64,000 bases of DNA. Source: Octopus vulgaris (taxonomy: Eukaryota). Made by a program: the position numbers and the translations under genes. Where the stretch lies: the NCBI GenBank assembly GCA_951406725.2, contig OX597829.1, forward strand, positions 14,012,001 to 14,076,000, written 5' to 3'. Positions within the stretch are counted from its first letter, which is position 1. Each line of letters opens with the position of its first letter. The notes beneath the pieces were generated by a model. That model was given only the letters and a program-made list of their open reading frames with translations. It was not told where the DNA came from and searched no databases. This document shows positions 752 to 62,284 of the stretch, in pieces.

Positions 752-1425
752 TGATTTGATTATATTTTCTGGGTAATAATTTATAGCGTTATTTCCAAAG
801 CACTTCTAAGGGCATCGGCTACCAGATGCAATCACACACTATAACTTCTCTTTTTCCTGGACCCCATAGGAAATCAGCGAGCATCCGAAGAGTTTATACA
901 AAAGAATTTAAATACGAGGAGATGCATTGAACAAGCTTTATTACAAATCACTACAATTGTTTCAAGACATCGGTGACGGCTGATACTTACACATACTATA
1001 TACCTTATTGCATGAATGTAATCCAGCAATGGCTGTATACATACTCGTCGTCAGGTGAGCAGCGTCCAGCTGAAACATATTGGCGAAATAATGTTTACCA
1101 TATGTGTAACATTCAGCAATTACCAACCGATAATCATGCACCGTAACTAAAGTATTGATTTGGAACAAAGGTACTACTTTTATATATCTTCTTTTATATA
1201 TGCATATATATAGACACTCATGCGTAAGAAGGCATATATATATATATATATATAATTATGTATATATGTGTGTGTATGCGTGTGCGTGTGTGTGTGTGCA
1301 TATATATTTATGTATATATATATATATATATATACATGTACATATATATGTATATATTTATGTATACATGTATACATATATACATGTGCGTGAGTAGGCA
1401 TATATGTATGTACGCATTTATACAC

Positions 1426-4331: not shown

Positions 4332-4522
4332 GCTTGTATATATACATGTAGATGTAAGTATGTACATATATGTATGTATATATGCATATATTTTATTTAT
4401 TTATTATATTGTTATTATATGACCGAACGCATGCGTCGTTTCTCTTCGTCTCTCTTCTCCAAGTAAGTTTATATACATATATATATCAAATGAAAAAATA
4501 ATAAACAGGACACAAAGGATGT

Positions 4523-4616
4523 CACGGTGCACATGTTTCGAGCTTTATAAAATAACTTATTCTTACATCAATGCATAATCAACATAACAGATAGTTTAAA
4601 GCCCTCTTCAGCCGCA
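4523..4616 (-). ncRNA. Hammerhead ribozyme motif with long stem II loop (degenerate at U16.1)
   Basis: Minus strand: UGCGG CUGAAGA GGGCUUUA...UAAAGCUC GAAA CAUGUG CA CCGUG. Confidence 0.65.
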
Positions 4617-4858
4617 TGCAATTGCTACACCAAAGACTTGTATCACATTATGAAAGGTTTGAGAAAGAATAATTGGTATTATTTATAATGGTAGGTAAAC
4701 TGAGTATCACTGAGAAAGTATGTTTGTAAATCTTCATAATCAAATAGGTGTACAGGGTATTATTGGACTCCAAAAATCCGTCCATACCCTTTTCTCACTC
4801 AATATAGAGTGAATACTGGGTAGATTCCGGTTGGGTTCATTCCTCTTGTAAGGGAAGG

Positions 4859-5602: not shown

Positions 5603-6399
5603 TATATGTATGTATATATAATATTATATTATATTATATTATATTATATTATATTATATTATATTATATTATATTATTATTCATTGCGTTTTGGAAACTA
5701 CTCAATAGTGTTTGGATTAATGACTATTGAAAAGGTTGCAAGATGCAACGTAAATTATATTTTAAATATTTAAGTAAATGAGTAGAAACATTACTGGTGA
5801 AAGTGTAAAATTATAAGGAACTAAAAGAGAATGACTCTCCCCATGCATATTTTCTGTCTATGTTTGTCCCCTATCAGTGTTGGTTTCTTTACGTCCCCGT
5901 AAATTGGCAGTTCCGCAAAATAGAACACAGGAATAAGTACTGGTCTTTAAAAAAATAAAACCTGGACTCAATTTCTTCGACCAAAGCCTTCAAGGTGATA
6001 CTCCAGCATGACCGCAATCGAAAGTAACTGCAACAAGTAAAACAATAAAAAAATTTTTAAATACATAAACATGCATATATCATATATATATATATGTATA
6101 TCTGTATGCATACGCATATATAGATGACTATTTTTGTGCGCTTGTGTTCAAGCAGGAATATGTGTGTGTGTACGTGTGTTTGTTTGTGCGTCTGCGTGTG
6201 TGTGTGCGTGTGCGTGTGCGTGTGTGTGTGTGTGTCTGTGTCTGTGTGTGTGTGTGTGCTAATAATAATATTTTATAAGCTTAAAGCTTATAAGCGTTCC
6301 CCGGGCATTGATTTAGGATATCTGGTAAGCGGCTAGTTATTTGGTGAAAATCGGCACCGCTTACCAAATATTCGTTATAAATGTATACGTAAATTTGTG

Positions 6400-6546: not shown

Positions 6547-6584
6547 CAGTACCGGTTTCGGTCATTTTGAGACCTTTTCAACTG
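6547..6584 (-). ncRNA. Minimal hammerhead ribozyme, U3-A8 core variant
   Basis: Minus strand: CAG UUGAAAA GGUC UCAAAAU GACC GAAA CCGG UA CUG; second copy at 55916-55952 (+). Confidence 0.8.
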
Positions 6585-7831: not shown

Positions 7832-7938
7832 GATATAGATATATACATACATACATACATACATACAAACACACACATGCATATATATTTATATATATAT
7901 ACAGATACATATATATTCATATATATGTATTATATATA

Positions 7939-8720
<782 letters not shown>

Positions 8721-10126: not shown

Positions 10127-10291
10127 ACGACGGGCTTCTTTCAGTTTCCGTCTACCAAATCCACTCACAAGGCTTTGGTCGGCCCGAGGCTATAGTAGAA
10201 AACACTTGCCTAAGGTGCCACGCATTGGGACTGAACCCGGGACCATGTGGTTGGTAAACAAGCTACTTACCACACAGCCATTCCTGCGCCT
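9901..10291 (-). mobile_element. SINE family 1
   Basis: Family sequence with a small internal deletion. Confidence 0.9.
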
Positions 10292-10367
10292 ATATATATA
10301 TATATATACATACATATGTATCTACACATATACATATATATATATACATATATATACATATGCATAT

Positions 10368-10427
<60 letters not shown>

Positions 10428-10428
10428 G

Positions 10429-10521
<93 letters not shown>

Positions 10522-10528
10522 GTTTTGT

Positions 10529-10880
10529 AGGCGCAGGATTGGCTGAGTGGTAAGAAGCTTGCCTCTCAACCACATTGTTCCGGGTTCAGCTCAATGCGTA
10601 GCAACTTGGGCAAGTGTCTTTTACTATGGTAACGGGCCAAACAATGCTTTGTATATATATATATATATATATGCATATATATTTGTGTGTGTCTTTGTGT
10701 TTGTGTTTGTCCCAGCATCATCGCTTGACAACCGATGTTGGTTTGTTTACATTCCTATAACTTAGCACTTCAGTTTACAAAGATTAAGTCCTGGGGTCGA
10801 TTTCTTCGACTTAAACCTTTTAAGACGGTGTTCTAGCATGGCCGCAGTCAAAATTACTGAAACGTGTAAATGAATAAAAG
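10529..10880 (+). mobile_element. SINE family 1, diverged
   Basis: ggcgcaggattggctgagtggtaag...agcatggccgcagtc. Confidence 0.85.
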
Positions 10881-11790: not shown

Positions 11791-12217
11791 TATGATGTAG
11801 GTATTGTCAAGTTCCAACTGTTTCCTCTTGAAGCACATCTGCTTACTCAATTGTTACAGTCCAATATGAATTGGCTGTCACTTTGTATAGTTGCAAGGGA
11901 CATATTTAAAGTTGAAAGTTCTGTAAATATTGCTTACGGTGATATTTTATAACCAGAAAGTTGGAAATTTTATTTGTATTTTTAATTTACCGTCTTTTAT
12001 GTTCCATTTCCTAATAAGAAATACAGCGTTTTACATGTTAGACGTGTAAGGAATTTCTTCAAATAGAGAAATTAAAGAATAGAAATATTTCATTTGGTTG
12101 ATTCATCTAAATATAAAATTAGTATTCTATTATTTCTGTATATGTCTAACATTTAAAACTCTGTAATTCGAATTATCGAATGAAACATGTGTAATGGTGA
12201 ATATATATATACAGATA

Positions 12218-12309: not shown

Positions 12310-12650
12310 CGAGTTAGAAAACAGAGCGATCTAATGGATACAAAGTAATTTATTAATTAATTCACCAACAATTGTTTCATTTCTCAACCAAAATAAAAAC
12401 TACAAAACACATATAAATATATAATTTTACATTTTAATTACCTTGTATGGAAAATCATCAGGGTGTGTAAAGGATAATAAGGATTACATTAAGATACATC
12501 CTTATGATGATTTTCCATACAAGGTATTTAAAATGCAAAATTATATATTTATATATGTTTTGTAGTTTTTATTTTGGTTGAGAAATGAAACAATTATTAG
12601 TGAATTAATTAATACTTTGTATCCATTAGATCGCTCTGTTTTCTAGCTCG
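12310..12650. repeat. Fold-back inverted repeat, ~150-bp arms, ~45-bp spacer
   Basis: cgagttagaaaacagagcgatctaatggatacaaagt... / ...actttgtatccattagatcgctctgttttctagctcg. Confidence 0.95.
12363..12465 (-). ncRNA. Hammerhead ribozyme motif, canonical core, long stem II insert
   Basis: Minus strand: CACC CUGAUGA UUUUC...GAAAU GAAA CAAUUG UU GGUG. Confidence 0.75.
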
Positions 12651-15028: not shown

Positions 15029-15362
<334 letters not shown>

Positions 15363-15387
15363 TATATATATTGTCACCACGACTACA

Positions 15388-15432
15388 TGAACCTGAAGAT
15401 TGCATAATTTAATGCATGAAAGTACTAGTTCA
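15388..15432 (+). ncRNA. Minimal type-I hammerhead ribozyme, canonical core
   Basis: UGAAC CUGAAGA U UGCAU AAUUUA AUGCA U GAAA GUAC UA GUUCA: 5-bp stem I, 5-bp stem II, palindromic GUAC stem III loop. Confidence 0.88.
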
Positions 15433-15666
15433 ATCAGAAGGAACATTTAACATTCTATTATTTTATTTTATTTTATTATATTATATTATATTATATTATA
15501 TTATATTATATTATATCATTATAAGATTGTAAATAAAACGTGAAAATCAGACAAGGTTGGAATTCCTTTTATTAATATATTCTTCTATACACTATCACAC
15601 ACACCCGTATGTATATTTTGTGTATTTCACGTTCTTGTTTCTTTATATATAAATTTTATTCCTATA

Positions 15667-15918
<252 letters not shown>

Positions 15919-17110: not shown

Positions 17111-17159
<49 letters not shown>

Positions 17160-17162
<3 letters not shown>

Positions 17163-17335
17163 TTTATAGAAGGAGTTTACAGGACTAGAACTGTTTCATT
17201 CAAAAGAAATCTTCTTTTGAATGAAACAGTTCTAGTCCTGTAGAAGCTCCTTCTATAAAATAAATTAATTTACTCTGCTATGTATTGAGTACCTTATTTA
17301 CTGTGGTTAACCCCGACTCAACCCGGGACCTACAT
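17160..17335 (+). mobile_element. Short fold-back copy of the hammerhead element family also at 53770-55038
   Basis: Hairpin 17160-17262; 17213-17335 is the reverse complement of 53770-53890. Confidence 0.88.
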
Positions 17336-18049: not shown

Positions 18050-18215
18050 AGACTGTCTGGGGAGACTAATTTTCTTTTTGTGCCTTATACCTTAACACAC
18101 TCACCGGTAATATTTTCACTTATTTCATATTTTTATTTTCCTAAAATTTTCATTGCGTCTTGTGACCTTTTCAATAGACTTGCGAGTCAAGACTATTGAA
18201 AAGGTTGCAAGACCA
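18050..18215 (-). mobile_element. Short repeat with U3-A8 hammerhead-like motif (18141-18177) and partial fold-back; same family as 56693-56860 (+) and 5720-5845 (+)
   Basis: Minus: CUA UUGAAAA GGUCAC AAGAC GCAAU GAAAAUUU UAG; inverted partial copy 18191-18213. Confidence 0.65.
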
Positions 18216-19258: not shown

Positions 19259-19523
19259 ATATATATATATATATATGTATGTATATATGAATAAATGAAA
19301 AGAGTAAAAGAGTTTTGTTAACATCTTCGTTCGACTCCATTCTTTCATTTATTCATTTATTCATATACAACACACAAATTTCTACATGAGAACCCGGAGT
19401 TTCTACCCTTGACAGGTCGCTTCAACCGTGTTTTCTGACGGGAATTTGCTACCCAGGTTTCGGTTAAACGAATTTTCCATGCTGACGATAAACATAGGAT
19501 AATTCATTCGCCTACTTAATATG

Positions 19524-21126: not shown

Positions 21127-21371
21127 CTTCCGTGTGCGCGCGCACACACGTACACAGACACACATACATACACACATACCTATACTACAAAATGAATAGA
21201 AATGGCTTTCTGATAAATTTTGCACTTTAGTAATTAGAAATCCCAATTAGAAACCCCAAACAATTTATAAACATCTAATTATTAAAGTGAGAAAATTGTT
21301 AGAAAAGTCATTTCCATTCATTTTTCAACCATACATATTATATATTATGGAGGACTTTCTATTTCTTACTC

Positions 21372-21987: not shown

Positions 21988-22228
21988 GTATAAATTGAGG
22001 ATATAATCAAGAAAATGATAAACAAGTGGCCAGCGTATAAAAACCACCATATCGGTAAAATTAATATTTAAGTATATAATTGAAAATATACAGAGATGTA
22101 CTTGCATAGTAAGTGACCTGATCTGAGATCGTGTGGTGGAATGAAAACAATTGCAGCGTGGAAGGTGTTTATAAGCCATTTAAGAAACACACGAAAACCG
22201 TTAGATTCACTTGAGCATTTAAATTTAA

Positions 22229-22279
22229 TTTGTCAAAATATTTTCGTCGCTTTGAGACCGCGACCTGTTCACTGACAAA
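22229..22279 (-). ncRNA. Minimal hammerhead ribozyme, G3-C8 core variant
   Basis: Minus: UUUGUCA GUGAACA G GUCGC GGUCUCAAA GCGAC GAAA AUAU UU UGACAAA; second copy 56322-56375 (+); flanked by inverted duplication 22148-22192 / 22298-22342. Confidence 0.8.
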
Positions 22280-22575
22280 AATATCGTGCTAAATATCGTG
22301 TGTTTCTTAAATGGCTTATAAACACCTTCCACGATGCAATTGAAAATGTACAATTATAATTAAGGGCGCTGGAGGGACAACGCCAATACGCTAGAAGCAC
22401 GTGTCAAATTTCTTCAAACCTCTCTAAATTTGTTCTCCGTTTTGTGCAAGACAGAATACCTTATATATATACATGCAAATTTGTGCTTCCCCTTTGCCGA
22501 TGCGCATAGTTCGGAGGGCGTGGGCACGCAATAACAGGTCGTCAAACGATGGTTGGAGGGGGGAGACACACAAAT

Positions 22576-23572: not shown

Positions 23573-24472
23573 TATTATGGCTGCCCCCTCGTTATCGAGT
23601 ATGGCCATTGCACGAAGCTTAACTGTTACTGGTGCTGTGATCGAATGTGACTTTTTAGCCCAGCTAAAGATCTACAATGTCTTGTACAGAATTGGCAACT
23701 AAAACCTTTACTGGTAATAGCCGGTTATAGTTGTAACTGGGCTTCATGTACCTTTGCATGTCGTTTAAGTCCTCCTGCCGAATTACACTCTCTTCCACAT
23801 GCCCGACAGATATGATTAGTATAGTGTGTTACACCACCAACAGTGGCCAGGTTGTCACTCATCTGTCTCGTTTTATGACTACGAAGATGACTCATGAGTC
23901 CAGCTTTACTGAGGCAGGCTATTGCACAGACATTGCATGTCAGAATCAAAGGAAGACCCTTCCCTTCTGGAAGTGTAACAGCGATGCCCTTCCTCACATC
24001 CCTCCTTACTTTCTCATGTGCAACTCGAGATTTCTCAAACGTGGCTGTCCCCTCATGCACAATCCTTCACCACCTGCTACGATCAATAGCTATGCTTTCC
24101 TATGGTGTCAGGAGAGATGCAAGCATCTCTTAAGGAAGCCTTCAGCAGGTCCTTATACCTCTTTTTTGGTTTATGTGGAGGTCGTTCTCCCTTAGCTAAC
24201 TCTCCATAAAAGAGTTGTTTTAGCATCCTTGAATCCTTCATTCTGACCAGATGACCACTCCATCTGAGCCTTTGCTTTAACACAAGAGCTTCTATACTTT
24301 CACACCAAGAGCCTTCGAGTATTTCAAGATCACTGATGCGGTCCTTCCACTTAATGCCATAGATCCGTCTGAGGCACATTGATGGAAACGTTCCAGTTGT
24401 TTAAGGTGGTATCGATATGTGAACCACGTCTCGCAGGTATAGAGAAGAGAAGGGAGCACACATGCCTTGTAC
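23572..24472 (-). mobile_element. 5'-truncated RTE-clade LINE with two C-terminal C2H2 zinc fingers
   Basis: YKACVLPSLLYTCETW, CLRRIYGIKWKDRIS, RLRWSGHLVRMKDSRMLKQLFYGEL; CNVC...HLRSH and CRAC...HAKVH; frameshifted. Confidence 0.88.
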
Positions 24473-25129
24473 ATACATACATACATACATACATACATAC
24501 ATACATACATACATACATAGCTAGGCAGATATGTGGATAGGAAGGGTGAGAGAGAGAGAGATGAAGATTTTTTGATAGATAGGTTACTAGGCAGGCGGGT
24601 AGGTAGGTAGGTAGGTAGGTAGGTAGGTAGGTAGGTAGGTAGGTAGGTAGGTAGGTGGGTGTGATATCATTATCTAAGTCATGGTTTCAAATTTTGATAC
24701 ACGGCCAGCAATTTCGAGTGGGGAGATAAGTCTATTACATCGAGCCCAGAGCTCTGGTACTTATTTTATCGACTCCGAAATCTATAGATGGCAAAGTCAA
24801 CCTCGGAATGTAAAGACGGACGAAATGCCGCTAAGCGTTTTGTCTGTCATGCTAACCATTCAGCCAGCTCGCCACCATAATCTTTTCAACTATTTGCACA
24901 AGGACTGAAATTTGTGAGGAGGGGCATAACTAATTACTTCGACTCCAGTGCTTGACTGGTACTTATTTTATCCCGAAAATATAAAAGGTTAAATCCACAC
25001 TTGTAAAAATATATCAAAAATATTTTACAATTCCATAATCCGTTGGGTAGTGAGTATATATGTTCACAATCTGCTCGGAATTCTATTTATGTATACACTT
25101 CTGAGAAGAAACTATATAACTATATAACT

Positions 25130-25879: not shown

Positions 25880-27138
25880 CGAGGGGCGTTCAATAAGTAA
25901 TGACCCTGACCCACTTGCAGTTGTTTGATCTAGCTGAAATTTTGCATGTGCACTTACTTGTATCTCTACGGATTAAGTGGTGAATTACAGCTCTGAACTA
26001 ATTGTGGTTTCTGATTTACAGGTGTTTGAACTGAGTCAAGTGTGAAATGGAGCCTGTTGAGTGTCGAGCAGTGATCTGGTTTTTGTATTTGAAAGGACGC
26101 ACACCACGGGAGACTTTTGATGAAAGGAAAGTAACTTATGGTGATGATGCCCCATCATATGACCTTGTAAAACGCTGGCATTGTGAATTCAAACATAGTC
26201 GGAACAGCTGCCAGATCTGGTCGTCCCCTTCTGCCGTTGATGAGATGTCTGTCCGTCAAGTTGAGGCTGCCATTTTGGAAGGTCAACGCATAACTATTCG
26301 CCAAATAGCCCATAAGGTCAAGATTAGTACCGGGTCTGTGGAAACTATCATTCATGACCATTTGCATATGCAAAAGGTGTCTGCCAGATGGATTTCCAGG
26401 TTGCTCACACCTTTCCAGAAGCAAGAACGCGTTGAGTGCTCGAGGATGAATTTGGAGATGTGCCAAGAAGATGAGTCAACATTTTTCAAAAGACTGATCA
26501 CACAGGATGAAACCTGGGTCCATCACTATGATCCATAGACCAAAGCCCAGTCAATGCAGTGAAAGCACCGTGACTCACCTCCTCCAAAGAAGGCAAGGGT
26601 GCAGCCCTCCGCTGACAAGGTTATGCTCACAGTCTTCTGGCACCAGGACGGAGTAGTGATGACAGATTTCCTGGCAAAGGGTACCACAATTACAGGAGCC
26701 TATTATGCTTCACTTTTGAGGAAATTAAGAGAAGCTATCAAAATCAAGAGGCGGGGCAAGATCAGCAAAGGCATCCTCCTCCTGCAGGACAACGCTCCGG
26801 TCCACAACTCGCGTGTCGCCAGATCAGAAGCACAGGCGTGCAGCTATGAACTCCTCCCCTTGCACCCTCTGATTTTCACCTCTTCCCAGCCATGAAGTTG
26901 ATTTTGAAAGGAAAGCGTTTTCCAGATGATGCAGCCTTGATTTCTGAAGTCACGTCGTGGTTGGAGGACCAAGCTGGGGTCTTCTACAAAAGCGGTCTCC
27001 AGAGCTGTATCAAACGATGGGAGAAATGCATAACTCTGGGTAGTTCCTATGTAGGAAAAGACTAATATCTGTGCCAAGTGTCGTTGCTCTACTTCTATGG
27101 GAAGTGGGTCAGGGGCATTACTTATTGAACGCCCCTCG
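25880..27138 (+). mobile_element. Full-length mariner (D,D34D; irritans-like) DNA transposon, 1259 bp, transposase pseudogenised
   Basis: ~37-bp TIRs cgaggggcgttcaataagtaatg(a/c)ccctgacccactt, TA on both sides; ORF from 26047 with WISRLLT, ITQDETWVHHYDP, LLQDNAPVH, LAPSDFHLF; stops at ~26536/26560 and the HPPYSPD segment deleted. Confidence 0.96.
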
Positions 27139-27233: not shown

Positions 27234-27896
27234 ATGTATGTATGTATGTATGTATGTATGTATGTATGTATGTATGTATGTATGTATGTATGTATGTATG
27301 TATGAAAGCAAGTATGTATGTCATTACTCAGTTTTATTTCAAGATTTCTTGCCAATTGAGGTGCCGATTTCTAACTTTGATCCAAGGCTCCTTCACTAGA
27401 ATTTCAACATCAACAGGGTATTTTTTTATATATGTCAGTATATGTGCAGATTTGTGTTTTGTTTTATGTATGTATTCCCATGCATATAGTTGCATTTAGA
27501 CATGCACATATATATACTTAAATGATAAATTCTGGCAAGTTTTACAGATTTTTACAGTTCCAGTGATAGCTTGAATCGGTAATCTTCGAATCAAATGTAT
27601 GTATATGTTTATATAAAGTCCTGGTAGGGTATAAAAGTAAGGTATTTCCAGAGAAGCACTTAATCCGAGTTCTGGGCTATCAACATTTGTCGGATTCCAG
27701 AAAATACTGGCTTCATGGTGGCAAAACCATTATGTGGGTTTAACGAAGAGTAAAAATATAATCCAAATAACAAGAAAAGAAATTCTTTAAGACATCTTTA
27801 ATTATCAGTTATAATTATAACTGATCATTAAAGATGTGTTAAAGAATTTCTTTGTTTTCTTATCGGGAATACACGCAAACACAAACACACACACAA

Positions 27897-33842: not shown

Positions 33843-34209
33843 TACCTATTTCTTTACTGCCCACAAGGAGATAAACACAGAGGGGACAAACAAGGACAAA
33901 CGGATTAAGTCGATTACATCACCACAGTGCGTAACTGGTACTTAATTTATCGACCCCAAAATGATGAAAGGCAAAGTCGACCTCGGCGGAATTTGAACTC
34001 AGAAAGTAGCGACAGGCGAAATACGGCTACGCATTTCGCCCGGCGTGCTAACAATTCTGCCAGCTCGCCGCCCTACTACTATACCATTTAGAATAGCCTC
34101 TGGATGGTGCCTGTACCACTTATCATGGGATCTAAATTTGTAGCTATTATTATTAATTTTGTTATCATTAACAACTACCGCAGCAACATTAGTAGTAGTA
34201 GTAGTAGTT

Positions 34210-34273
<64 letters not shown>

Positions 34274-34630
34274 CAGCAGCAGCAGTACTACTACTACTAC
34301 TACTACTATTGCTGTGGTAGTTGTTAATGATAACAAAATTAATTATAATAATAGTAGTAGTAGTAGTAGTAGTAGTACTACTACTACTACTGCTACTACT
34401 ACTAATTCCAATACTGCTGCTGCTATTATTAGTGTTATTATTATTAGGGAGGCGAGCTGTCAGAGTTGTTCGTACGTCGGACAAAAAGCTTAGCGACATT
34501 TCTTCCGACTTTATGTTATGAGTACAAATGCCGCTGTGATCATCTTTGCCTTCATTCTTTTGGAGTCGATAGTACTAGTCAAGCCATGCGTTCCATGTAA
34601 TTGACTACCGCCAACCTCAAGCCTTGTTCC

Positions 34631-35478
34631 GGATCTTTTCAATTGTGTGGCCAGGAGCCCAGATCTTTCTACTTAACTAAATAATTTGAAACTTCGTATG
34701 CTGGTACAGTGTTTCAAAACAAGTCACAGGTTGGAACTAGTTTATTTGAGAAAAATCTATTTTATGACTTTAATCGTAGATTAAAACTGCGAATTTTAAC
34801 CAATGAGATTGCTTGTTTTCATATTTAATACGTTACTGCATTCTGTTAGTGTGACGTAGAAAAGCAGTTTTTCCCTCATCATCCCTCTTTCTCTCTCACT
34901 CTTTCTATCTGTTCATCTCTCTATCACAGTCTGTCAGCCTGTCTCTTTCTTTCTTCCTCTTTCTCTCACTCTCTCTCCCTCTCTTCATCTCTATCTTTAT
35001 CTCAGTTTCTCTCTCTCCCTCTCTCGCTCATCATCTCTCACTCTTTCTATCTGTCCGTCTCTCTATCACAGTCTATCTGCCTAAACATATGGTATGTAAA
35101 CAAATGTAAACAAAACAATAACGATGACATTTTTTACTCGGTGTATGTGTATATGTATGAATGTATGTATGTATGAATGTATGTATGTGTGTATGTATGT
35201 ATGTATGTGTGTATGTATCTATGTATGTGTGTATGTATGTGTGTGTATGTATGTGTGTGTATGTATGTATGTATGTATGTATGTATGGCCGATTCGGTGT
35301 TTACTTTATTTCGAGTTAAAACGAAAGATTATCAAAAAAAATTTTGTTTATATCTTCGATCACTGTCATTATCCCATTGAGTCAACCTCATTATTTTTTA
35401 CATAGCAAAGGTAATCTTTCGTTTTAACTCGAAATAAAGTAAACACTGAATCAGCCATACATACATACATACACACAC

Positions 35479-36904: not shown

Positions 36905-38190
<1,286 letters not shown>

Positions 38191-38191
<1 letters not shown>

Positions 38192-41100
38192 CTTCGTAAC
38201 ACAATGTAGGTAAAAATGCACCAGAGTCTTTAGTCACAACAAGGACCTCAGACAGATAATAGTTTCCTTAAGATGTGCACTGTGTCCAATAAGGCAGCTT
38301 TTTGCAAGAAATCAATCTTTCATGGGATTTCCAGTTGCCTTAAGTAGTCTTGAAATTTCAATGGAAATGAGCCCAACGCTCTAATCACCACTGGTATCAC
38401 TTTTACATTACCCTCTCGCATTCCATACAGTCTTGCCATTTCTACTTTCAGTTCATAGTACTTGGTGATTTTTTCAACCTCTTCACTCACAACATTCATG
38501 TCATTTGGTATGGCTACATCAATGATCTGACAGTATCTATCGCTCTTACTCAATATGACAATAACCGGCCAACAATGTTCGATTACATGATCCATCTGAA
38601 AATCATAGTCCCAGAGTATCGTTACTTTTCCATCCTCCTGCATAACTTTACTAGGTACATGCTCATACTAGTTCTCTCTTACTTCATATTGGTATTTATG
38701 GCATAAGATCCTGACGGTGCCTGTATTCTTTTTTTGCAAGACTCTCATATCCACTAACCAACTGGGTCATATTTTCCACACTCTTTCCACAGAGTCTGCA
38801 TTTCTGGACGTCAGAAGTTTTATAGATATTATACTTCATCGAATTGGTAGCCAGAGCCTGGGTTTGTGCAGCAATGATCAGACTTGCGGCGATACGCCTC
38901 AAATCACTTCGCTCAATCCATGCCCACGATGCTGTATTATCCTTAACGCTTTGTGTATTCCTTTCAAACTGTCCATGCATTCCCATTTCATGGTTTTCTT
39001 TTCTCTTCTCCCCAACTCTTTGGTTAAACTATGCCATCCCCATCATTTTATCTGCATTTACACCCATATGTTTCGCTGCATATTGCAGCAGGTCTTCATC
39101 ACTATTTATCAAATACTCGGCAAGCGTTCTCCTTTCATTCCTTTGGTCTATACTAATTAGTCTTCTGCCACCATTCTTTCTTTTCATAGACAGTCTATTT
39201 GCGTTTGCTTTATGGTGCAGCGCCCCATGCAGGGTCATCAATTTCTCACCCTTCTATTCAGTGTTGATATTTACTTCTTAGTCCATTTCAGGATAGACGC
39301 ACTATCTCTGACCACCGCAATTGCCCAGATATTCATTGCAGTAATCGAATTTTTGGCACTAAGGTTGGATTTCAACACCATCTTCAGCCTTTTTTGATAC
39401 GCTTCGTTGACCTTAACTTTCATTTTTCTGTGTAGAATGTCATCCAGCTCCAAAATCCCTAAATATCTATACCCACTACTGTCTGGTCCACCCACGGTCT
39501 CTCCTGATGGTAACCGCAATCCTCTGCAGGCTGGTTTCTTCCCTCTATTCATATTAAGTACTGAGCATTTGCTGATCCCAAATTCCATACCGATGTCCCT
39601 ACCACATTTCTACACTGTTTTGGTTAAGGAATCTATCTGATTTTCAGATTTCTCAAACCATTTCAGGTCATCCATAAACAGAAGATGGTTCAATAATGGC
39701 TCTTCTTCCCGCATAGGTAACCCATGTTAACTTTCCTAAGTGTCATTGTTATGGGTATTACTGTAATTAAAAAAGTAACGGAGAAAACGAGTCACGTTGG
39801 AAGATTCCCCTTTTAATATTAACTTCTCTAAGGAATACATTACTTGAATACAATTTGGTTTGCCACTTTTTTATGCCATGCATCCGAAAATTTGTCAGGT
39901 TGTCAGCAATGCCAAACATCTGCAGGCATTCAACGATCCAAGAATGAGACATCATATCAAATGCCTTCCTAAAGCCAATCCAAGTCATTGATATGTTTGT
40001 ATGTTGTTTTTTACAATGCCTCAAAACTGCTTTATCGATGACTAGGTGATCCTTGGCACCCTGAGAACTCTTCCTACATCCTTTTTGTTCCTTTGGTAGT
40101 ATTTCTTCCTGTGCCGGGAAGGTGTATATCTTTGCCGCACATATTCCAGTGAGTATTTTCCAGATTATGTTTAGGCATGCTATGGGACGGTAGTTTCCCA
40201 CAGTATTCTCCTTTCTTCTGTCTTTCATTACAAGTGATGTCCTCCCAGTCACCATCCACGAGGGGACTGTACCTTTCTGGACACATTCATTCAATTGGAC
40301 TGCTAGTCTTTCATGCACCGTGTGGTATCTCTTCAGCCAGAAGCCATGAATCCGATCTGGTCCGGGGTATTTCCAGTTAGGCACTTTACCCACTTTACCC
40401 GTGCTTATGACAATATTCCTTTCTTTCTTTCCTCCTTGTAATTCTGTCTTGATAGTTCCTATCCACATTGCAGCCCTTTTATGCACCACATTGTTTCCCC
40501 ATAATCCGCTCCAGAACTCCTTGGCTTCATTTGCATCAGGAGCAACATTTTCCTCTCTGTCTCCTAACGTTCGGAAGAATTGCTTCGAGTTATTTTTGAA
40601 CAAACTGTTCTCGAATCTTCTGATCTTCTGGCTCTTTAATCATGATCCTCTGTTTTAACTACATAAAACCAATTCTTCCGTATTTTATGTTTCTTCTCTA
40701 ATTTTTCTCGGTCGCTTTTTTTCCCATTTTTCCAGTTTCCTCTTAACCATTGCTCAATTTTTCCTAGATCTTGCCTTGCCTGCATTATGTCCCTTTCCAT
40801 GCGTCGTTTCCACCATGATTATTTTGCTCCACCATTTTTTATTCACTTAAGTTGTAATTTCTCCTCAACAAGTTGCGTAATAGCTCGGAGAATATTCCCT
40901 GTTTGTGTTATGTTCTCCGTCTGGATGTATGGTATGACAGTATTTTTACTTTTGTGTTACATTATTTATCATACTCCTATATACTCTTCTCATATTCATG
41001 GAGCTTTTTTTCTTCTGGAGCATTCAGTCTGTGAGTCGTCTTTGAATTTCAAGCAATTCATTATCTAGTTGGTTCATTTCCCCTGCATGTCTACCCACCA

Positions 41101-41640
41101 CAGTGTCTGGGTTCACTGTATAACGTTCCAGTTCCTCATCCTTAACAGCCCCATCACTATTCCCCTGTTCCTCCTATCTACTCTTCTCCCTGCTTTCAAC
41201 TCCGACCATCCTTTGTATCCCATCCTAGATATTTCTACTTCAATTAAGTAACTCTTCCTTCTAATCACTCTCACTTGGTTCATCAGTTTATTTTCTGACA
41301 TTGAACACATGTCCTTTTCCATCCAAAATTTCAAGGTAAGTCGGCCTACTCTGCGACTTCTTTCCACCTTTGCTCTTCCATGACATTCAGTTAGTGTATC
41401 GTACTCTTCCTTCGTCTACTTCTGTTTTTGCGCACACCGTGTATGTGATCTGTAGTGACATACCGACTGCCCGAGGCCAGATCACTGCCCCTCATGCGGG
41501 TGGTTTCGGACGTGCCATGATCGGCTATACCTTCATTCTCGGCGTTAATTCTTCCTTGTTGTGTTGCATCATGATTTCATGTGTCGTTCGTGGGGTTCCC
41601 ACGAGTGTTGTTATTGAGATCTCATCTCTCTCTTCCACTC
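38191..41640 (-). mobile_element. Near full-length decayed R4/NeSL-type RLE retrotransposon of a second family
   Basis: RT motifs PGPDRIHGFWLK, NYRPIACLN, EQKGCRK, GIFQRDSFSPLLF, HLLFMDDLK, YRYLGILE; CRLCGK and ILWD RLE region; many frameshifts; 5' limit approximate. Confidence 0.9.
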
Positions 41641-41727
41641 TTTATTTGTATACACATGTGCTCATGTATGTACATACACATATATATATAAATATTTTAC
41701 TTGCATTGTGTCACCTCCATAAACACA

Positions 41728-44004
<2,277 letters not shown>

Positions 44005-44030
44005 TCATCATTATTATTATTATTATTATT

Positions 44031-44585
44031 GAGTGAGCGAGCAGAGCATGCCATCAAAGTGACACTGGGGTAAAATATACGAAGCCCAATATACCCATCA
44101 TGACTACCCGTCTGATAAAGGTACACCGGGCACATGCATCACAACCATATGTGCGCGACATGGTGATCTCATATCAAGATAAACAGCACATGACCTTGCA
44201 GGTGGGGCCCAGTTAGAATTTTCTTCAGGTTGAGTAGCCCATCCCGCTCAAACGGTCCCTGAATAAGGGTTGTTTAAGGATGTTGAAAGAACCACCCATG
44301 TTTCCAGAGGTGAACTATTCAAACCCCAAAGAATCCCACTCAACACATGGCTATGATGCTCCCCCACTACTTCTGCTCGTGATCAGAGATGCACATATCG
44401 TCATCCACAAAGGGACATGCTCAACTGGTTAAGGGTCAAACAACTGACAAGCAAATCTGTGGTATTGAGCAGAATATTTGCTGTAGCCCATCTTTTATAC
44501 CAAGACAAAACAATGTACATGATAACACTTCCAATCAGTTAAGATCAGAAGCCATGAGAGCCACTGCCTGGTACTGCATCAGGGC

Positions 44586-48593: not shown

Positions 48594-49145
48594 ATCATCA
48601 TCATCATTGTTCGACCGTGGTCGAGACAATCGAAGTTACCATGCTACGGCAGACTTCACGGTCCATCATGGCATTACGGCATTGTGGATGCCTGATGTAA
48701 TCTCCAGGGTAGGAGATTGTGCGCTCTCTGGTATCTCGAGTAGATGGCTTCCAGAGGAGAAGAGTAGAAATTGCCTCGTTTTCAGCTCTACAACAATGTC
48801 TCCTACCTTTCACAAGAGATGACACAGGTGGTAGTTTCCCATATATTTGCATTTTGGTTGGATGACGCTTCCACGAGAGATTTTGAGCTCTCATAAGGAG
48901 GCGAATGTAGGTTCCATACAACCACCTCTCAAGCTTCTTTGATAACGTCCAGGTTTCTGAGCCATATAATAGAATTGGTTCGACTGTGGCTTTGAAGATT
49001 TCAAGTTTGAAGTCTCTACTTAGATTTGATGACCAGATCTTATGCATGTCATTACAGGCTGACCAGGCCATACCCTTTCTAGTTAGAAAATCTTTTCCAG
49101 ATGATGATATGTATGACCCAAGATATTTGTAATCAGAAACTTGTT
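48594..49145 (-). mobile_element. 5'-truncated RTE-type LINE with (ATG)n tail
   Basis: DYKYLGSYI, FKATVEPILLYGSETWTL, RLLMRAQNLSWKRH; tail catcatcatcat on +. Confidence 0.88.
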
Positions 49146-49645
49146 TGCATGATGTGCACACACAAACACTGTCCCACAATATTTCCTCGCTGCTGAGCTC
49201 ACTGCTTGAGAAAATTGTCTTTAGTGCAGATGAGCATTACTATTTTTTTTTATATTTACCTGTTGTTTATGTTGTACTTATTACTACTGTCGCTGTTTAC
49301 GTAGTATTGAAAGAGGAGGAGCTCCCACTTTTACATTTCTCAAGATGGCAGAACTTTGTCAACTAGTCTTGGCTAACACATCTACTCTTTTACTCTTTTA
49401 CTTGTTTCAGTCATTTGATTGTGGCTATGCTGGAGCACCGACTGATAGCAAGGACCACTGTTTTAGGGACAAGGAAGGGGGTAGTTAATACCAGTGGCCC
49501 TAATACTTGACCGGTATTTTATTTTATCGATCTCGAAAGAATGAAATGCAAAGTTTACCTCGCAGGGATTTGAAATAATAACAAGAAGAAGAAGAAGAAG
49601 AAGAAGAAGAAGAAGAAGAAGAAGAAGAAGAAGAAGAAGAAGAAG

Positions 49646-51064: not shown

Positions 51065-52673
<1,609 letters not shown>

Positions 52674-53719: not shown

Positions 53720-53840
53720 CATGCATACATAATGTATATATGTATATATATATATATATATATATGTATATGTAGGTCCCGGGTTGATTCGGGGTTAACC
53801 ACAGTAAATGAGGTACTCAATACATAGCAGAGTAAAATTA

Positions 53841-54070
53841 ATTTATTATATAGAAGGAGCTTCTACAGGACTAGAACTGTTTCATTCAAGAGAAATCTTC
53901 AGGAAGCTAGTTAACAAGAATTGTATTGGCATTTATACATTTAGGCAGGTTTAAAGGGGTATTGGTGGGGGACTTTTTGGGGGTAGGCATAGCGCAAAAT
54001 ATCATACTTGGGGGAGTGGTCAAGGAGTCAGTGTTAAATTAGATAGAAGAATAAATAAAAAATAAAAAAT

Positions 54071-54138
<68 letters not shown>

Positions 54139-54762
54139 TGGGATAGGGTTTTAGGTAAATAAGGAGATTCTCACTTATACCTATGCACATATGTATACAT
54201 ATATACACACGCATACAAACATATACATATACATACACACATACATACACACACATATATACATATACATATATATACACTTACACATACATATACATAT
54301 CTACACATACACATATATGTATACATACACTCACTCACATGCATACACGTATACACACATGTATATATACACACACACGACAACACATACATATACACAC
54401 AGAAAAATATATATACACATACACACACATACTCACATACACGCATACACACATGCGTGTATGTGAGTATGTGTGTGTATGTGTATATATATTTTTCTGT
54501 GTGTATATGTATGTGTTGTCGTGTGTGTGTATATATACATGTGTGTATACGTGTATGCATGTGAGTGAGTGTATGTATACATATATGTGTATGTGTAGAT
54601 ATGTATATGTATGTGTAAGTGTATATATATGTATATGTATATATGTGTGTGTATGTATGTGTGTATGTATATGTATATGTTTGTATGCGTGTGTATATAT
54701 GTATACATATGTGCATAGGTATAAGTGAGAATCTCCTTATTTACCTAAAACCCTATCCCCCT

Positions 54763-54807
<45 letters not shown>

Positions 54808-55038
54808 TATTTTTTATTTTTTATTTATTCTTCTATCTAATTTAACACTGACTCCTTGACCACTCCCCCAAGTATGATATTTTGCGCTATGCCTACCCCC
54901 AAAAAGTCCCCCACCAACACCCCTTTAAACCTGCCTAAATGTATAAATGCCAATACAATTCTTGTTAACTAGCTTCCTGAAGATTTCTCTTGAATGAAAC
55001 AGTTCTAGTCCTGTAGAAGCTCCTTCTATATAATAAAT
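53841..55038. repeat. Large near-perfect palindrome, ~600-bp arms, 6-nt loop at 54447-54452
   Basis: ORFs 54171-54716(-) and 54183-54728(+) are nearly identical; arms differ mainly in (TA)n length and a few substitutions. Confidence 0.97.
54971..55021 (+). ncRNA. Complete type-I hammerhead ribozyme (GUA site); mirror copy 53858-53908 (-)
   Basis: AGCUUC CUGAAGA UUUC UCUU GAAU GAA ACAG UUCUAGUC CUGU A GAAGCU. Confidence 0.85.
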
Positions 55039-55076: not shown

Positions 55077-55466
55077 GGATGATACAACCTCGATACAGGG
55101 ACGATACAACCTCGAACGAACGAATAAGTAAAGAAGCTCTCTTTATTACAAAATACAGGCCATTTCTGAACGGGTTTACGACAAACGATATATACACCTC
55201 AGCTTTAGAATAACACAAATACTCACGCCAATATTACATTCCAAAGAATCCATTACAAATCAGCCCCAATCACAGCTATAACCCATAACGTGCCAACTTT
55301 AAGTCATACAACACCTCACTACTTCCACTCATTCATATTCTCCTTCCTCTTTCTTCTTCTTCTTCTTCTTCTTCTTCTTCTTCTTCTTCTTCTTCTTCTT
55401 CTTCTTCTTCTTCTTCTTCTTCTTCTTCTTCTTCTTCTTCTTCTTCTTCTACTACATCCTACTACT

Positions 55467-55529
<63 letters not shown>

Positions 55530-56037
55530 TTCTTCTTCTTCTTCTTCTTCTTCTTCTTCTTCTGCTCCATCTTCTACTTCTTAACTTCATCATTAATGCT
55601 TTTTAGTATAACACCTACGCAAATTCTATAAACAAACCTTTCAATAGAAATATTCTCATGAATTGAACAGCAACTGCTAGCCGCCACTGACCACTCAAAA
55701 TACGACAATCAAGGCACTCCCAAATTCCCCCACCTCTTCATCCTTCTTCTTCTTCCCTACCAAGAATTCACAACGACCTCCAACCCACAAGTGTAAACAA
55801 GAGAGACAGAGAAAGCCAGAAACAAGGAAAATGCCACTTATATTTGAACACTATACAAATATTCCTTTAAAAAACTTTCCTTTTAATTTTTCTAAATTTA
55901 ATTATTTAATTGTTACAGTTGAAAAGGTCTCTAATGACCGAAACCGGTACTGAAATGTTCTTTATAAAATTATTTTAGCATTTTCTATCTTGACTTGTTT
56001 TTTCATATATATCAACTCGTCTGTTCCTTTTCATTCT

Positions 56038-56082: not shown

Positions 56083-56321
56083 TTGGATAGATAGATAGAT
56101 AGATATAGATTTACATATATATAGATATACATATATATATATATACAAATATGTGTGTGTGTATAGTAGAATAGTTAGCGAGCAATTCTAGGGCGGGCAA
56201 GACTATGATCAGAAGCGAAAGAACATGTCCCTGATTGTAAAGATACAGCGGAATCCTTGGCTTCCACAATTGTTAGCATGTAACAGTAGGTGTTACGGGA
56301 GAGAGAGATGCAACACGAAAT

Positions 56322-56375
56322 TTTGTCAGTGAACAGGTCGCTGTCCCCAAAGAGCGACGAAAATATTTTGGCAAA
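56322..56375 (+). ncRNA. Minimal hammerhead ribozyme, G3-C8 variant
   Basis: UUUGUCA GUGAACA G GUCGCU GUCCCCAAAG AGCGAC GAAA AUAU UU UGGCAAA. Confidence 0.8.
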
Positions 56376-56531
56376 TTAAATTTAAATGTTGAAGTGAACC
56401 TAAAGGTTTTTGTGTGTTTCGTAAATGGCTTATAAACACCTTCCACGCTGCAATTGTTTTCGTTCCAGCACACTATCTCAGATCAAGTCACATGCAAGCA
56501 CATGAATATGCACAATACATGCATACAGATG

Positions 56532-56569
<38 letters not shown>

Positions 56570-56700
56570 CATATGCATACACACACATATATACATACAC
56601 ACACATGTATACATACATGTATACACACAAACACTGACCCACTCACATGCGCAAAAACAGACAAAAGGGAACGCAGTGTAAATAACGGACAGAGTCAAGA

Positions 56701-56737
56701 CTATTGAAAAGGTTGCAAGACGCAACGAAAATTTTAG
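56701..56737 (+). ncRNA. Minimal hammerhead-like motif, second U3-A8 family
   Basis: CUA UUGAAAA G GUUGC AAGAC GCAAC GAAA AU UU UAG. Confidence 0.65.
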
Positions 56738-56886
56738 AAAATAAAAATAAGAAATAAGTGGAAATTTTACCGGTGAGTGTGTTAAATAATAAGGCACTAA
56801 AAGAGAATGACTCTCCCCAGACACAACAGAATATGCTTCAACACACGAACTCATATAAAGAATCTTGCAGAGCAAATCCCAAAACG

Positions 56887-57213: not shown

Positions 57214-57783
57214 TTCCCGGACTACATGGGGAATATATTCCCCCTTAATGGGACGCCGGTCCGTTGGGGGATTATTAATGTTTGCCAGTTGAGTAGACCT
57301 GGGCCACATGAAATGACGTTTTGTTCTTTTTTATGAAGAACATCCTTACTCTTGAGCCACGACCTCCTCTCGGTTTATCATATTTAAGATATACGCACTG
57401 TTGATGGGTCACTTACTGTGCAATATTTGTCCCAACATAATATCTCTTAAAAACAGCATGTCTTAAAAATATAATGAATATCAGATGAAACATCGCCTCA
57501 ATAACGGCCAACAGATCCATTTCGGCCACGAGAATTCATTGGCCCTGATAACAGAAAATAATAAATAAATGATATAGGAGTTAGTATATAGGTCTTACCG
57601 ACTAACCAAGTACGTTGAAAAGTGTCGGGTGAAGAAATTGTCTTTCTATTGGCTACCATGAACAAAATTGTTGTGAACAAAGTAGCCCTCACGTGCATGT
57701 TGGATTTTCTACATGGTGCTGTTAAGTTTCCCTAAGATTACTTTTCCTCAATTGGAAAGAAAAACTAGAGAATAATATAATTT

Positions 57784-58403
57784 TAGAATGGTTGTATACT
57801 GTCAATTTAACGTGACAGTAGTGGATTACACCGCTGTTTAGCCCTAGGAAGCATCGACGCTTCCTGCCGGCTTCGACACATTTTTTTTCCTGTGTCCTTA
57901 TATATTTACGAAGGGGAGACAAACACCCCCAGCAGCCAGGCCTGCATCTAGAGACACGCATGTTTCAGGATCTTTGTCCATCATCGGTCTAGAGTAGCAG
58001 AAGCCCGCCAGCCGCAGATATCTGTCTCGATTTCGTAAATATATATATCTAATTTTCAGTGAAGTTTATTCACTGATTACCAAATTTAATATTTCTGATT
58101 TTGGTAATCAGTGAATAAACTTCACTGAAAATTAGATATATATATTTACGAAATCGAGACAGATATCTGCGGCTGGCGGGCTTCTGCTACTCTAGACCGA
58201 TGATGGACAAAGATCCTGAAACATGCGTGTCTCTAGATGCAGGCCTGGCTGCTGGGGGTGTTTGTCTCCCCTTCGTAAATATATAAGGACACAGGAAAAA
58301 AAATGTGTCGAAGCCGGCAGGAAGCGTCGATGCTTCCTAGGGCTAAACAGCGGTGGTGTAATCCCCTACTGTCACGTTAAATTGACAGTATACAACCATT
58401 CTA
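57784..58403. repeat. Near-perfect palindrome, ~300-bp arms, 15-nt loop 58085-58099
   Basis: ORFs 57722-57961(-) and 58223-58432(+) share their N-terminal 45 aa. Confidence 0.97.
58191..58237 (+). ncRNA. Type-I hammerhead ribozyme (GUC site, U4C); mirror copy 57947-57993 (-)
   Basis: UCUAGA CCGAUGA U GGA CAAAGA UCC U GAA ACAU GC GUGU C UCUAGA. Confidence 0.8.
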
Positions 58404-58936
58404 TCGCCCCACCACCGTACATATCTCTATGAGATATTTAGAAATTTAATATTTCTAATATAATTTTAGATACACTGAAAGAAATTAAGGAATAAAGGTC
58501 ATGTTTAGAATGAACATACATCTGCTAAGTCAAAATTGAATTGGTGGTAAAAGAAAAAGCAACAACGTAATAATAATATGAGTTCTATTTTTGTTATAAG
58601 TTTTTATACATATATACATACATAATACACATACATACACATACACATACATACGCATACTGATACGTGCACGCATACATGTATACTTAGATACTCATAT
58701 ACATATATATATATATATACACACACACACATATAAACACACACATGCTACAGGTATGTCAGACGTAGTATTTTTATTGATGAACAAATCAATTACATCA
58801 TGTAAAAAATAATACGTTTATTCAGTTAAATAAAGAGTAAAATTGAACAATAATGATTTCAGACATAAATAGTATATAATGCATATTGACCCTTTCTTCT
58901 AAATGTTCATTAACCGAAGAAAACTTATTATTTATA

Positions 58937-60094: not shown

Positions 60095-60100
<6 letters not shown>

Positions 60101-60320
60101 ATATGTTACAAATATTCAATAGTCAAGATAAAACTCTGAGTTTCAGATGCCGAAGTGGAAATACACAACACCATCTCTTCGAAGAGATGGTGTTGTGGAT
60201 TTCCACTTCGGCATCTGAAACTCAGAGTTTTATCTTGACTACCGAGTAATGTAACATATTATTTTATAGATAAATTTCCTCTATTTACATAATGTTGAGG
60301 TCTCTATCTTAACGTTTTTA

Positions 60321-60323
<3 letters not shown>
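60095..60323 (+). mobile_element. Fold-back copy (loop-less palindrome centred 60180/60181) of the 15130-15362 family
   Basis: agtcaagataaaactctgag...ccatctcttc|gaagagatgg...ctcagagttttatcttgact. Confidence 0.9.
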
Positions 60324-60928: not shown

Positions 60929-60938
<10 letters not shown>

Positions 60939-61285
60939 GAAAGAATGGAGTTGAACGACGATTTAACAAAATTCCTTTATTCTTTGACATATGCTTCGAA
61001 GGCTGCATATTCCTAATTTCGAAGGAATAAGGTGTGCATTATGCTGCCTTCTCATCAGAAGAGACAAGGAATTTATGTCAGCATCAAGATGAACAAAAAC
61101 TCTTAGATGACTGCCCACTCAGAGTCCATAGCGATGTTTTGTTCATCTTGATGCTGACATAAGTTCCTTGTCTCTCCTGGTGAGAAGGCAGCATAATGCA
61201 CCCCTTATTCCTTCGAAATTAGGAATATGCAGCCTTCGAAACATATGTCGAGAATAAAGGAATTTTGTTAAATCGTCGTTCAACT
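60929..61285. repeat. Fold-back inverted repeat (~150-180-bp arms) with a hammerhead in each arm (61173-61253 +, 60981-61062 -)
   Basis: + arm: UCUC CUGGUGA GAAGGC...GCCUUC GAAA CAUAUG UC GAGA; - arm has CUGAUGA but GAAG. Confidence 0.88.
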
Positions 61286-61403
61286 CCATTCATTCATTTA
61301 TTTATATTAAAAAAACACAAATTTCCACAGGAAAGCACGTGATCTCTGCCCTTGGCATGTAGCTTCAACCGTGTTTTTCTGAGGGATAATTCATTCAACT
61401 ACT

Positions 61404-61452
<49 letters not shown>

Positions 61453-61455
<3 letters not shown>

Positions 61456-62210
61456 GAGGGAGATAAATTGAATATTAATTTAATTAATATCAATTTAAAA
61501 CCAGTAGCCTAGCATACAAAAATCTGAAAAATCAGAGAAAATCCTAATACATGTGTATATTTTAAAGTATACCACTATGTGGACAGCCATATACTAGAAA
61601 TAGATCACCTACGATCAAACTACAAAGAAAGAATGTTCTCTAGAGAAAAATTCAGAGGACACCAAAACAATAGGCGGGCAAGATAGATGAAAATTATATA
61701 AAAAAAAACAAGAATTAATCGCAAACCGGTATTAATACCGCAAACATATATTAATTAAATTAATATTCAATTTATCCCCTCATTATTTAAATTTTAAAAT
61801 AAATATGTTCTCTAATAGGCAGCATTAACTGCAGTAAATTATTTACTGCAGTTTTTGTTTCCGGAATTTAGCGCGCCAGAACTCAGACATTTGAAATTAA
61901 CCCCAATGTAATCGGTGGAACTAAGCACGAGTCTGTTTTTATACGGAATACTGGTGGTTAGTTTTACAAATTATATTGCTTTTGGGACAATCGTACTGAT
62001 GAGTCCTACGGACGAAGGATTACGTAAGTGATTTACTTGTTAATAGGCGAAAGCGGTTTGCGATTAATTCTTGTTTTTTATATAATTTTCACCTGTCTTG
62101 CCCGCCTTTTGTTTTGGTGTCCGCTGAATTTTTCTCTAGAGAACATTCTTTCTTTGTAGTTTGATCGTAGGTGATCTATTTCTAGCATATGGCTGTCCAC
62201 ATAGTGGTTT
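61453..62210. repeat. Interleaved inverted repeats (61453-61490/61748-61785 and 61571-61728/62054-62208) around a partial hammerhead core at 61996-62016
   Basis: Arms readable directly; CUGAUGA GUCC UAC GGAC GAA. Confidence 0.85.
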
Positions 62211-62230
62211 TTAGGTCTTAAAATATACAC

Positions 62231-62284
<54 letters not shown>

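Follow-up and report, generated by a model that had tools for sequence, protein, structure and literature searches.

Hammerhead-Bearing Fold-Backs in the Octopus Window

The window analyzed here, a 64-kb stretch of Octopus vulgaris DNA, is AT-rich animal DNA, 22% of which was masked as microsatellite. Twenty-five local inverted alignments were detected in it, and removal of SINE-like pairs, microsatellite matches, and sub-hits left 16 fold-backs. A hammerhead motif is carried by 11 of the 16, located with a sequence descriptor or, for families A and I, parsed by hand. In these 11 fold-backs, an inverted, 5'-truncated copy is joined head to head with its counterpart, and since both arms of each fold-back span the same RNA stretch, a palindrome results (Table 1). 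The arms of two palindromes are ~99% identical (53841-55038 and 57784-58403), and those of the others diverge by 7 to 20%. The spacer between the arms measures ≤15 nt in 7 of the 11.

The descriptor recognized hammerhead motifs in families B, C, D, E, G, H, K, P, Q, R, and S, and inspection added families A and I. At a score of ≥9, it returned 20 sites in the window versus 0 to 3 in each of 8 shuffles, with 7 of the 20 being microsatellite or doubtful. The core boxes are accompanied by helices I and II and a palindromic helix III, as in the type I minimal hammerhead (self-cleavage is a prediction); helix III is palindromic in families C, E, H, P, Q, R, and S. A tail on one arm was checked against a second copy for families A, B, and H and is probably also present in families C, E, G, and I. 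Families A, B, H, and I have (TA)n on both flanks. One clear target-site duplication was found among 13 fold-backs examined, a 15-nt repeat at 57773-57787 and 58456-58470 in family G, the spacer of which copies the tail end.

No telomerase-like reverse transcriptase or GIY-YIG endonuclease was recognized by eye among the 186 frames of ≥90 amino acids in the window. A 40-codon frame at 55079-55198, which we take to resemble an endonuclease C terminus, lies ~720 nt upstream of the family S hammerhead and directly after the family B palindrome; the 40-amino-acid peptide gave no Pfam match, and a weak search gave no homolog. The Rfam hammerhead model did not appear among the best 150 of 368 Rfam matches in the window, and those matches were microsatellite driven and of the miRNA type. 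Non-LTR retrozymes, described in the available part of 10.64898/2026.07.22.740005 as tandem arrays with one hammerhead per unit, were considered and rejected, as the copies here are single or head to head and self-comparison gave no tandem arrays.

Collectively, the window palindromes are short mirror-image insertions of Penelope-like elements, i.e., fragments of the element termini that carry type I hammerhead motifs and have their arms arranged head to head. The elements are of a known kind. An earlier interpretation made from the letters of the window (the sequence-only reading) had invoked Penelope elements with inverted terminal repeats, and the head-to-head arms and type I motifs bear this out.

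Other repeats were also observed. A short interspersed repeat that has (TA)n as its internal spacer is abundant, occurring at 7921-8501, 10169-10650, 33948-34571, and ~20 other places, partly as inverted partial pairs. Broken frames that by eye resemble non-LTR retrotransposon reverse transcriptases and a mariner-type transposase lie at 37216-44138, 51420-51856, 26035-26895, 48604-49236, and 23725-24686.

Table 1. Hammerhead-bearing features of the window. Offsets are counted from hammerhead base C3 = 0, negative values being upstream.
Feature	Coordinates	Strand	Description
Family A inverted arm	60096..60180	-	Tail-less; inner end C4/G5; 93% identity to right arm; spacer 0
Family A sense arm	60181..60264	+	Starts at G5 (GAAGA 60181-60185); GAAA 60217-60220; numbering by inspection
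Family A tail	60265..60322	+	58 nt, right arm only, (TA)n end; aligns to 15286-15369
Family A unfolded copy	15200..15362	+	5'-cut at -2; core CCGAAGA at 15202, C replaces U4
Family Q unfolded copy	15372..15459	+	Complete type I motif, core 15393; 5'-cut at -21
Family B fold-back	17159..17335	.	Left arm 17159-17208, 3-nt spacer, right arm from +8 (17212), tail right
Family B fold-back	53775..55038	.	Turns at -524 (54447-54452); cores 53902(-), 54977(+); tail left
Family C fold-back	12311..12649	.	Left arm complete motif (core 12461, minus); right arm from U4 (12505)
Family D fold-back	18054..18213	.	U3-A8 covariant core TTGAAAA at 18196 and 18174(-); arm ends -8, -12
Family D fold-back	5680..5843	.	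Turns at -4, core 5727
Family D unfolded copy	56692..56823	+	Core 56704; reaches at least -12
Family E fold-back	15782..15902	.	Turns at -28, core 15876
Family G fold-back	57773..58470	.	Turns at -97; cores 57987(-) and 58197(+) (CCGATGA); tail to ~58455
Family H fold-back	60932..61407	.	Inner end -40, 38-nt spacer; cores 61177(+), 61058(-); tail right
Family I fold-back	61454..62236	.	Core 61996, hand-parsed, missed by descriptor; left arm to ~+57
Family P fold-back	22113..22342	.	G3-C8 core (22272(-)); long arm to ~-16, short arm from ~+80
Family P unfolded copy	56314..56491	+	Core 56329; reaches at least -15
Family S unfolded copy	55775..56010	+	U3-A8 core at 55919
Family K motif	4485..4625	-	Complete, core 4611; no fold-back
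Family R motif	930..1070	-	Complete, core 1054; no fold-back

Anatomy of Individual Families

The family A palindrome at 60096-60264 is centered at tctcttc/gaagaga with zero spacer, right before G5 as the sequence-only reading had described; its arms end at C4/G5 (+1/+2), with the CG common to both. Cleavage of the sense arm is predicted after 60229, and the 5' strand of helix I is absent, so that no complete ribozyme is present. The unfolded copy required a correction. It had been read as 15130-15362, with the element continuing upstream of the core, but in contigs from four runs aligned on 15129-15459, depth is near nil over 15129-15188, and family A depth begins only at 15200 in all four runs and extends to ~15371. 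The copy is thus cut at -2, a correction that favors the near-core pattern proposed by the same reading. Depth ramps were not treated as a breakpoint distribution. Loose ends before 15200 have a consensus unlike the window (27 to 44 contigs in the three runs listed), and this consensus supplies a helix I strand, GATAA, that pairs with TTATC; the family A helix I, whole in neither window copy, was taken from it. Besides the loose ends listed, the four runs gave one opposite-strand joint, at 15200 (-2), in 1 contig of run X6. Sequence shared by family A extends to about -19.

The upstream consensus of family A also contains 9 nt complementary to the helix II/GAAA segment, which may be either a natural competing helix or a recurrent short fold-back in a master copy, and it resembles a 3' splice site 12 nt before the core. 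Several families carry AG between -1 and -16; that the apparent breaks stem from a 3' splice site located at helix I was considered as a possibility.

For family B, the left arm of 17159-17263, including the spacer, reaches G5, the same core position as had been read for 17160-17262; the right arm enters at +8, and the turn reads GAA-ATC-TTC. The other family B fold-back is built differently, one copy turning at +8 and the other at -524. The latter turn (54450) sits inside a co-copied microsatellite flank, with a 6-nt spacer after ~590 nt. Both arms of 53775-55038 contain ~350 nt of this upstream flank and are ~99% identical, hence recent; we regard the flank as a 5' transduction by a read-through transcript. 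The left arm of the family C fold-back is 44 nt longer than the right, with a 44-nt spacer, and reaches -43. Its right arm starts at U4 (+1), confirming a start at tgatga (~12505) as read for 12310-12650. Likewise, a turn a few nucleotides upstream of the core, described at 18141-18213, corresponds to the arm ends at -8 and -12 of family D fold-back 18054-18213, the right arm of which terminates within helix II. In the second family D fold-back, 12 nt of spacer are copied from flank ~190 nt leftward.

The remaining families add several details. In the left arm of family E (15782-15836), 8 nt of helix III are missing; the deletion is flanked by AGT direct repeats and extends up to the predicted cleavage site. 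Family H has a second copy at 19299-19445, with a match beginning 2 nt past the predicted cleavage site, where a neighboring repeat end blurs the boundary. The right arm of family I extends ~200 nt upstream, and its tail end is re-copied at 61748-61785. Family S has a second copy at 6581(-), with ~143 nt upstream in common. Both family P copies have the core GTGAACA, with G3-C8 covariant and a 7-bp helix I (22236-22272(-) and 56329-56368(+)). U3-A8 cores occur in families D and S, and C occupies position 4 in families A and G.

Junction Positions within the Window

The central claim of the sequence-only reading was that fold-back junctions repeatedly fall at the hammerhead CUGANGA box. This holds for 5 of the 11 junctions, the four originally named plus 5680-5843, which end within 12 nt of C3: +2 (60096-60264), +8 (17159-17263), +1 (12311-12649), -8 (18054-18213), and -4 (5680-5843). 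The other six turn elsewhere: -28 (15782-15902), -40 (60932-61302), -97 (57784-58403), -524 (53841-55038), ~+57 (61547-62236), and +80 (22113-22342), the last being a counterexample via its short arm only. Five fold-backs with no verified core were left out of the count (3590-3812, 11999-12188, 21189-21324, 27759-27871, and 35288-35455). In two of these older fold-backs, the turn coincides with a CTGATNA-like word or precedes it by 6 nt. A perfect palindrome center at 27815 lies 6 nt ahead of a CTGATCA word in 27759-27871.

Against uniform ranges of 300 to 150 nt, 5 of 11 junctions within 12 nt of the core gives a binomial P value of 0.001 to 0.025. Permuting arm lengths among events predicts ~1.0 to 1.3 near-core junctions versus the 5 observed (P = 0.0007, or 0.0017 with tail ends estimated by eye). 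The excess at the 5' edge of the core is therefore real but modest, since the ±12-nt span was chosen post hoc and family D contributes two of the five near-core events.

An Independent Set of Metagenomic Loci

Metagenome contigs were scanned with a generic minimal hammerhead pattern, which retrieved at least 107 loci, most of which look animal and have helix I and helix II pairing. Seven were dropped for a GC content of ≥0.5, leaving a low-GC subset of 100. Two loci (L026 and L037) proved to be chance matches in coding sequence without a fold-back, and nine matches in viral contigs were dismissed as being about the number expected by chance (hand estimate). The exact family A pattern had no match in the metagenome contigs. 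As the scan needs an intact core on one arm, events of the family A and B types (60180 and 17210), in which both arms are cut inside the core, cannot appear in this set.

Among the matches listed, 50 of the 100 low-GC loci contain a fold-back. The inner ends of these 50 listed fold-backs have a median of -52 (quartiles of -74 and -25): 5 lie within 12 nt of the core, 27 at -80 to -24, 11 further upstream, and 7 downstream. Junction density in the same 50 is 0.39 per nt at -12 to 0, not above the 0.47 per nt found at -80 to -24. Near-core ends account for 5 of the 44 listed junctions that reach the core and for 3 of the 29 listed core-reaching arm pairs that are ≥85% identical; no duplicate loci were found. 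All five near-core ends among the 50 listed fold-backs are confined to -3 to -7, and the stretch from -8 to -23 holds no end. This may reflect a small helix I peak; for the two diverged pairs, these ends may instead mark the edge of conservation. The listed ends of one family are spread over -24 to -57, with a single further end at +34. In two families, again among the matches listed, homology between copies stops near -60 to -68, and the diverged loci L030 and L055 both turn at -67, which suggests a boundary that is family specific and lies away from the core.

Compared like for like, 3 of 9 window junctions and 5 of 44 metagenome junctions (matches listed) are near the core, with no clear difference (Fisher P = 0.12); with 5 of 11 for the window, P is 0.019. 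Spacers of ≤15 nt occur in 18 of the 50 listed metagenome fold-backs. In 2 of the 50 listed (L112 at +33 and L045 at +34), the inverted arm ends at the predicted cleavage site versus ~0.4 expected, a weak hint of the ends expected if cleaved RNA were copied. Ownership of both spacer and tail could be called in 4 of 42 listed fold-backs, on the same arm in two and on opposite arms in two (one weak); these four calls are too few to separate snap-back from the joining of two cDNAs.

The ribozyme is not a general turning point, as elements in other DNA mostly turn elsewhere. The proposal that it is a general hotspot for palindrome formation is not supported: near-core junctions number 5 of 11 in the window but 5 of 50 among the metagenome matches listed, a set blind to events cut inside the core on both arms, without excess over -80 to -24, and 6 of the 11 window junctions themselves lie away from the core.

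Comparison with Known Elements

In twin priming of L1, two primed cDNAs are joined by microhomology at an inversion junction. The two parts of an L1 5' inversion cover different stretches of RNA, whereas the arms in the window cover the same stretch and hence form a palindrome.

The remaining comparisons draw on portions of the cited papers. Penelope-like elements form head-to-head inverted copies with one-sided tails (PMC8557442, PMC3846280), and junction palindromes have already been interpreted as self-priming on an antisense template (PMC3846280). As in the insertions of endonuclease-positive (EN+) Penelope elements described there, those in the window have an inverted, 5'-truncated copy at the 5' end, a one-sided tail, microsatellite targets, and junction palindromes; they differ in being 100- to 600-nt stumps with no confirmed open reading frame and in having tails of 50 to 130 rather than 30 to 40 nt (PMC8557442, PMC3846280). 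The portions of both reports used here do not relate junction position to the hammerhead, and no paper that does so was found in the open-access literature.

Metazoan Penelope hammerheads (PMC4209133, in part) share with the window the CUGANGA and GAAA boxes, a short palindromic helix III, U3-A8 cores, and dual motifs on opposite strands, 100 to 700 bp apart. The window adds to the examples in that part of the paper: the core of family P is G3-C8, and position 4 is occupied by C in families A and G. For the Drosophila virilis element, transcription starts in the terminal repeat, 46 nt before a 75-nt intron (PMC2377424), which ends at helix I (PMC4209133); the leader of this element is therefore short. 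The anole Poseidon element PAc (Anolis carolinensis) starts reverse transcription at two adjacent internal sites and extends both target strands in vitro; its protein is a predicted dimer, and ribozyme mutants left insertion size unchanged (PMC11167929). Internal starts at two sites downstream of the hammerhead would explain the tails in the window, and the target is likewise AT rich. The main text on PAc, as far as it was available to us, maps start sites rather than stop sites or inversion junctions (PMC11167929).

Where Copying Ends and How the Arms Join

Each palindrome would represent one insertion event in which a Penelope-like element left its hammerhead-bearing terminal repeat. The endonuclease of the element would cut AT-rich DNA, and reverse transcription would start inside the RNA, as is established for the anole element, here probably 60 to 300 nt downstream of the hammerhead. 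The resulting antisense cDNA, or pair of cDNAs, would be closed head to head, either through fold-back or through the joining of two cDNA ends, via 0 to 5 nt of self-complementarity and sometimes a short template jump, as the junction sequences imply. Most ends lie within the ~100 nt upstream of the hammerhead's 5' edge, and the zone that they occupy differs from family to family, most likely because a short leader ends, or loses the enzyme, there. Several octopus families have this zone at the core's 5' edge, as shown by 5 of 11 junctions and by one unfolded copy. Our preferred reading, to which we assign a probability of about 55%, is that cDNA synthesis ended within a short RNA leader, in a zone that depends on the family, that the junction marks this endpoint, and that the folded catalytic core is not the obstacle. 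Two observations weigh against run-off at the leader end. An RNA start cannot lie inside CUGANGA, yet families A, B, and C end at +1 to +8, so run-off does not explain these ends directly; moreover, the long arm of family C reaches -43 and the shared family A sequence reaches ~-19.

Reverse transcription runs 3' to 5' on RNA. By the time the enzyme reaches CUGANGA, it has therefore already passed the 3' strand of helix I, the cleavage site, helix III, GAAA, and helix II; at G5, nothing remains of an intramolecular ribozyme. Beyond G5, the 32 nt still to be copied fold more weakly than -3 kcal/mol in 9 of 12 families, compared with -7 to -26 kcal/mol for whole motifs. A block by the fold is expected at its 3' edge (the 3' strand of helix I, at +33 or beyond), not at CUGANGA, which makes improbable the model of the sequence-only reading, that reverse transcriptase stalls at the folded ribozyme core of its template and then snaps back. 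In its favor are the four junctions originally named plus one more at the core, the mini-hairpin GAA-ATC-TTC that the cDNA end at 17160 can form, and the short spacers common to both sets (7 of 11 in the window and 18 of 50 among the metagenome matches listed); against it, the same fold in other DNA shows no peak. As for the snap-back itself, close arm ends imply coupled ends, which fits either snap-back or a coupled enzyme pair, and snap-back is plausible for symmetric junctions. It fares less well where the tail-less arm is the longer one at its 5' side (17160, 61547-62236, and L045), a configuration unlike plain snap-back, although a spacer may flip later through recombination between arms. 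In addition, 3 of 10 spacers tested copy the tail end or near flank (58085-58099, 5710-5722, and 61748-61785/61729; 0 of 200 shuffles each), suggesting that the template was switched or the junction repaired.

The obstacle could also act in trans. If a second RNA were base-paired with the 5' strand of helix I, or if the element's protein covered that strand, copying would pause at the C3/helix I boundary, and two cDNAs would be joined there. The second RNA could be held via a palindromic helix III, as in a dimeric hammerhead, and the seven families with this feature would be candidates. Window ends at +2, +2 to +8, +1, -2, -4, and -8 agree with such a pause, as do the opposite-strand joint at 15200, the five near-core metagenome ends listed, which occupy -3 to -7 and leave -8 to -23 empty, and the anole protein, a predicted dimer needed by its ribozyme (PMC11167929, in part). 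We nevertheless consider the trans pause unlikely, given that only 5 of 44 core-reaching and 3 of 29 high-identity junctions among the metagenome matches listed are near the core, that helix I is merely 3 to 7 bp, and that the anole ribozyme mutants had insertions of unchanged size in vitro. A more elaborate version, quite unlikely in our estimation, would have the palindromic helix III serve as a dimerization signal, keeping two template RNAs together for use by a dimeric Penelope protein; both cut ends would be primed simultaneously, each enzyme would pause where the partner RNA is paired to helix I, on the 5' edge of CUGANGA, and the cDNAs would be joined there. If true, this would give a weakly active minimal hammerhead a job other than cleavage and would explain the near-equal head-to-head arms.

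Chance and selection offer a simpler account: the elements are short, the core lies 60 to 200 nt from the start of copying, and the sequence-only reading gave fitting cases only, omitting 6 of the 11 as counterexamples. The small sample, the two near-core events from one family, the post hoc ±12-nt span, and the like-for-like Fisher test (P = 0.12) speak for it. It too has a low probability, because permutation yields far fewer near-core junctions than the five observed (~1.0 to 1.3) and because the unfolded family A copy is also cut at -2. Chimeric fold-back reads, a sequencing or assembly artifact, might be suspected for the two palindromes with ~99% identical arms, but the 7 to 20% divergence of the other arms, the one-sided tails, the family G target-site duplication, and the same anatomy in unrelated assemblies render this source highly improbable.

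Implications

The junction positions described here refine the known anatomy of Penelope elements and do not demonstrate a new mechanism. Such positions provide a cheap genomic record of where cDNA synthesis ended, which bears on the role of the Penelope hammerhead and on the formation of head-to-head insertions. Junctions of some families do accumulate at the 5' edge of the core, even though the core is no general turning point.
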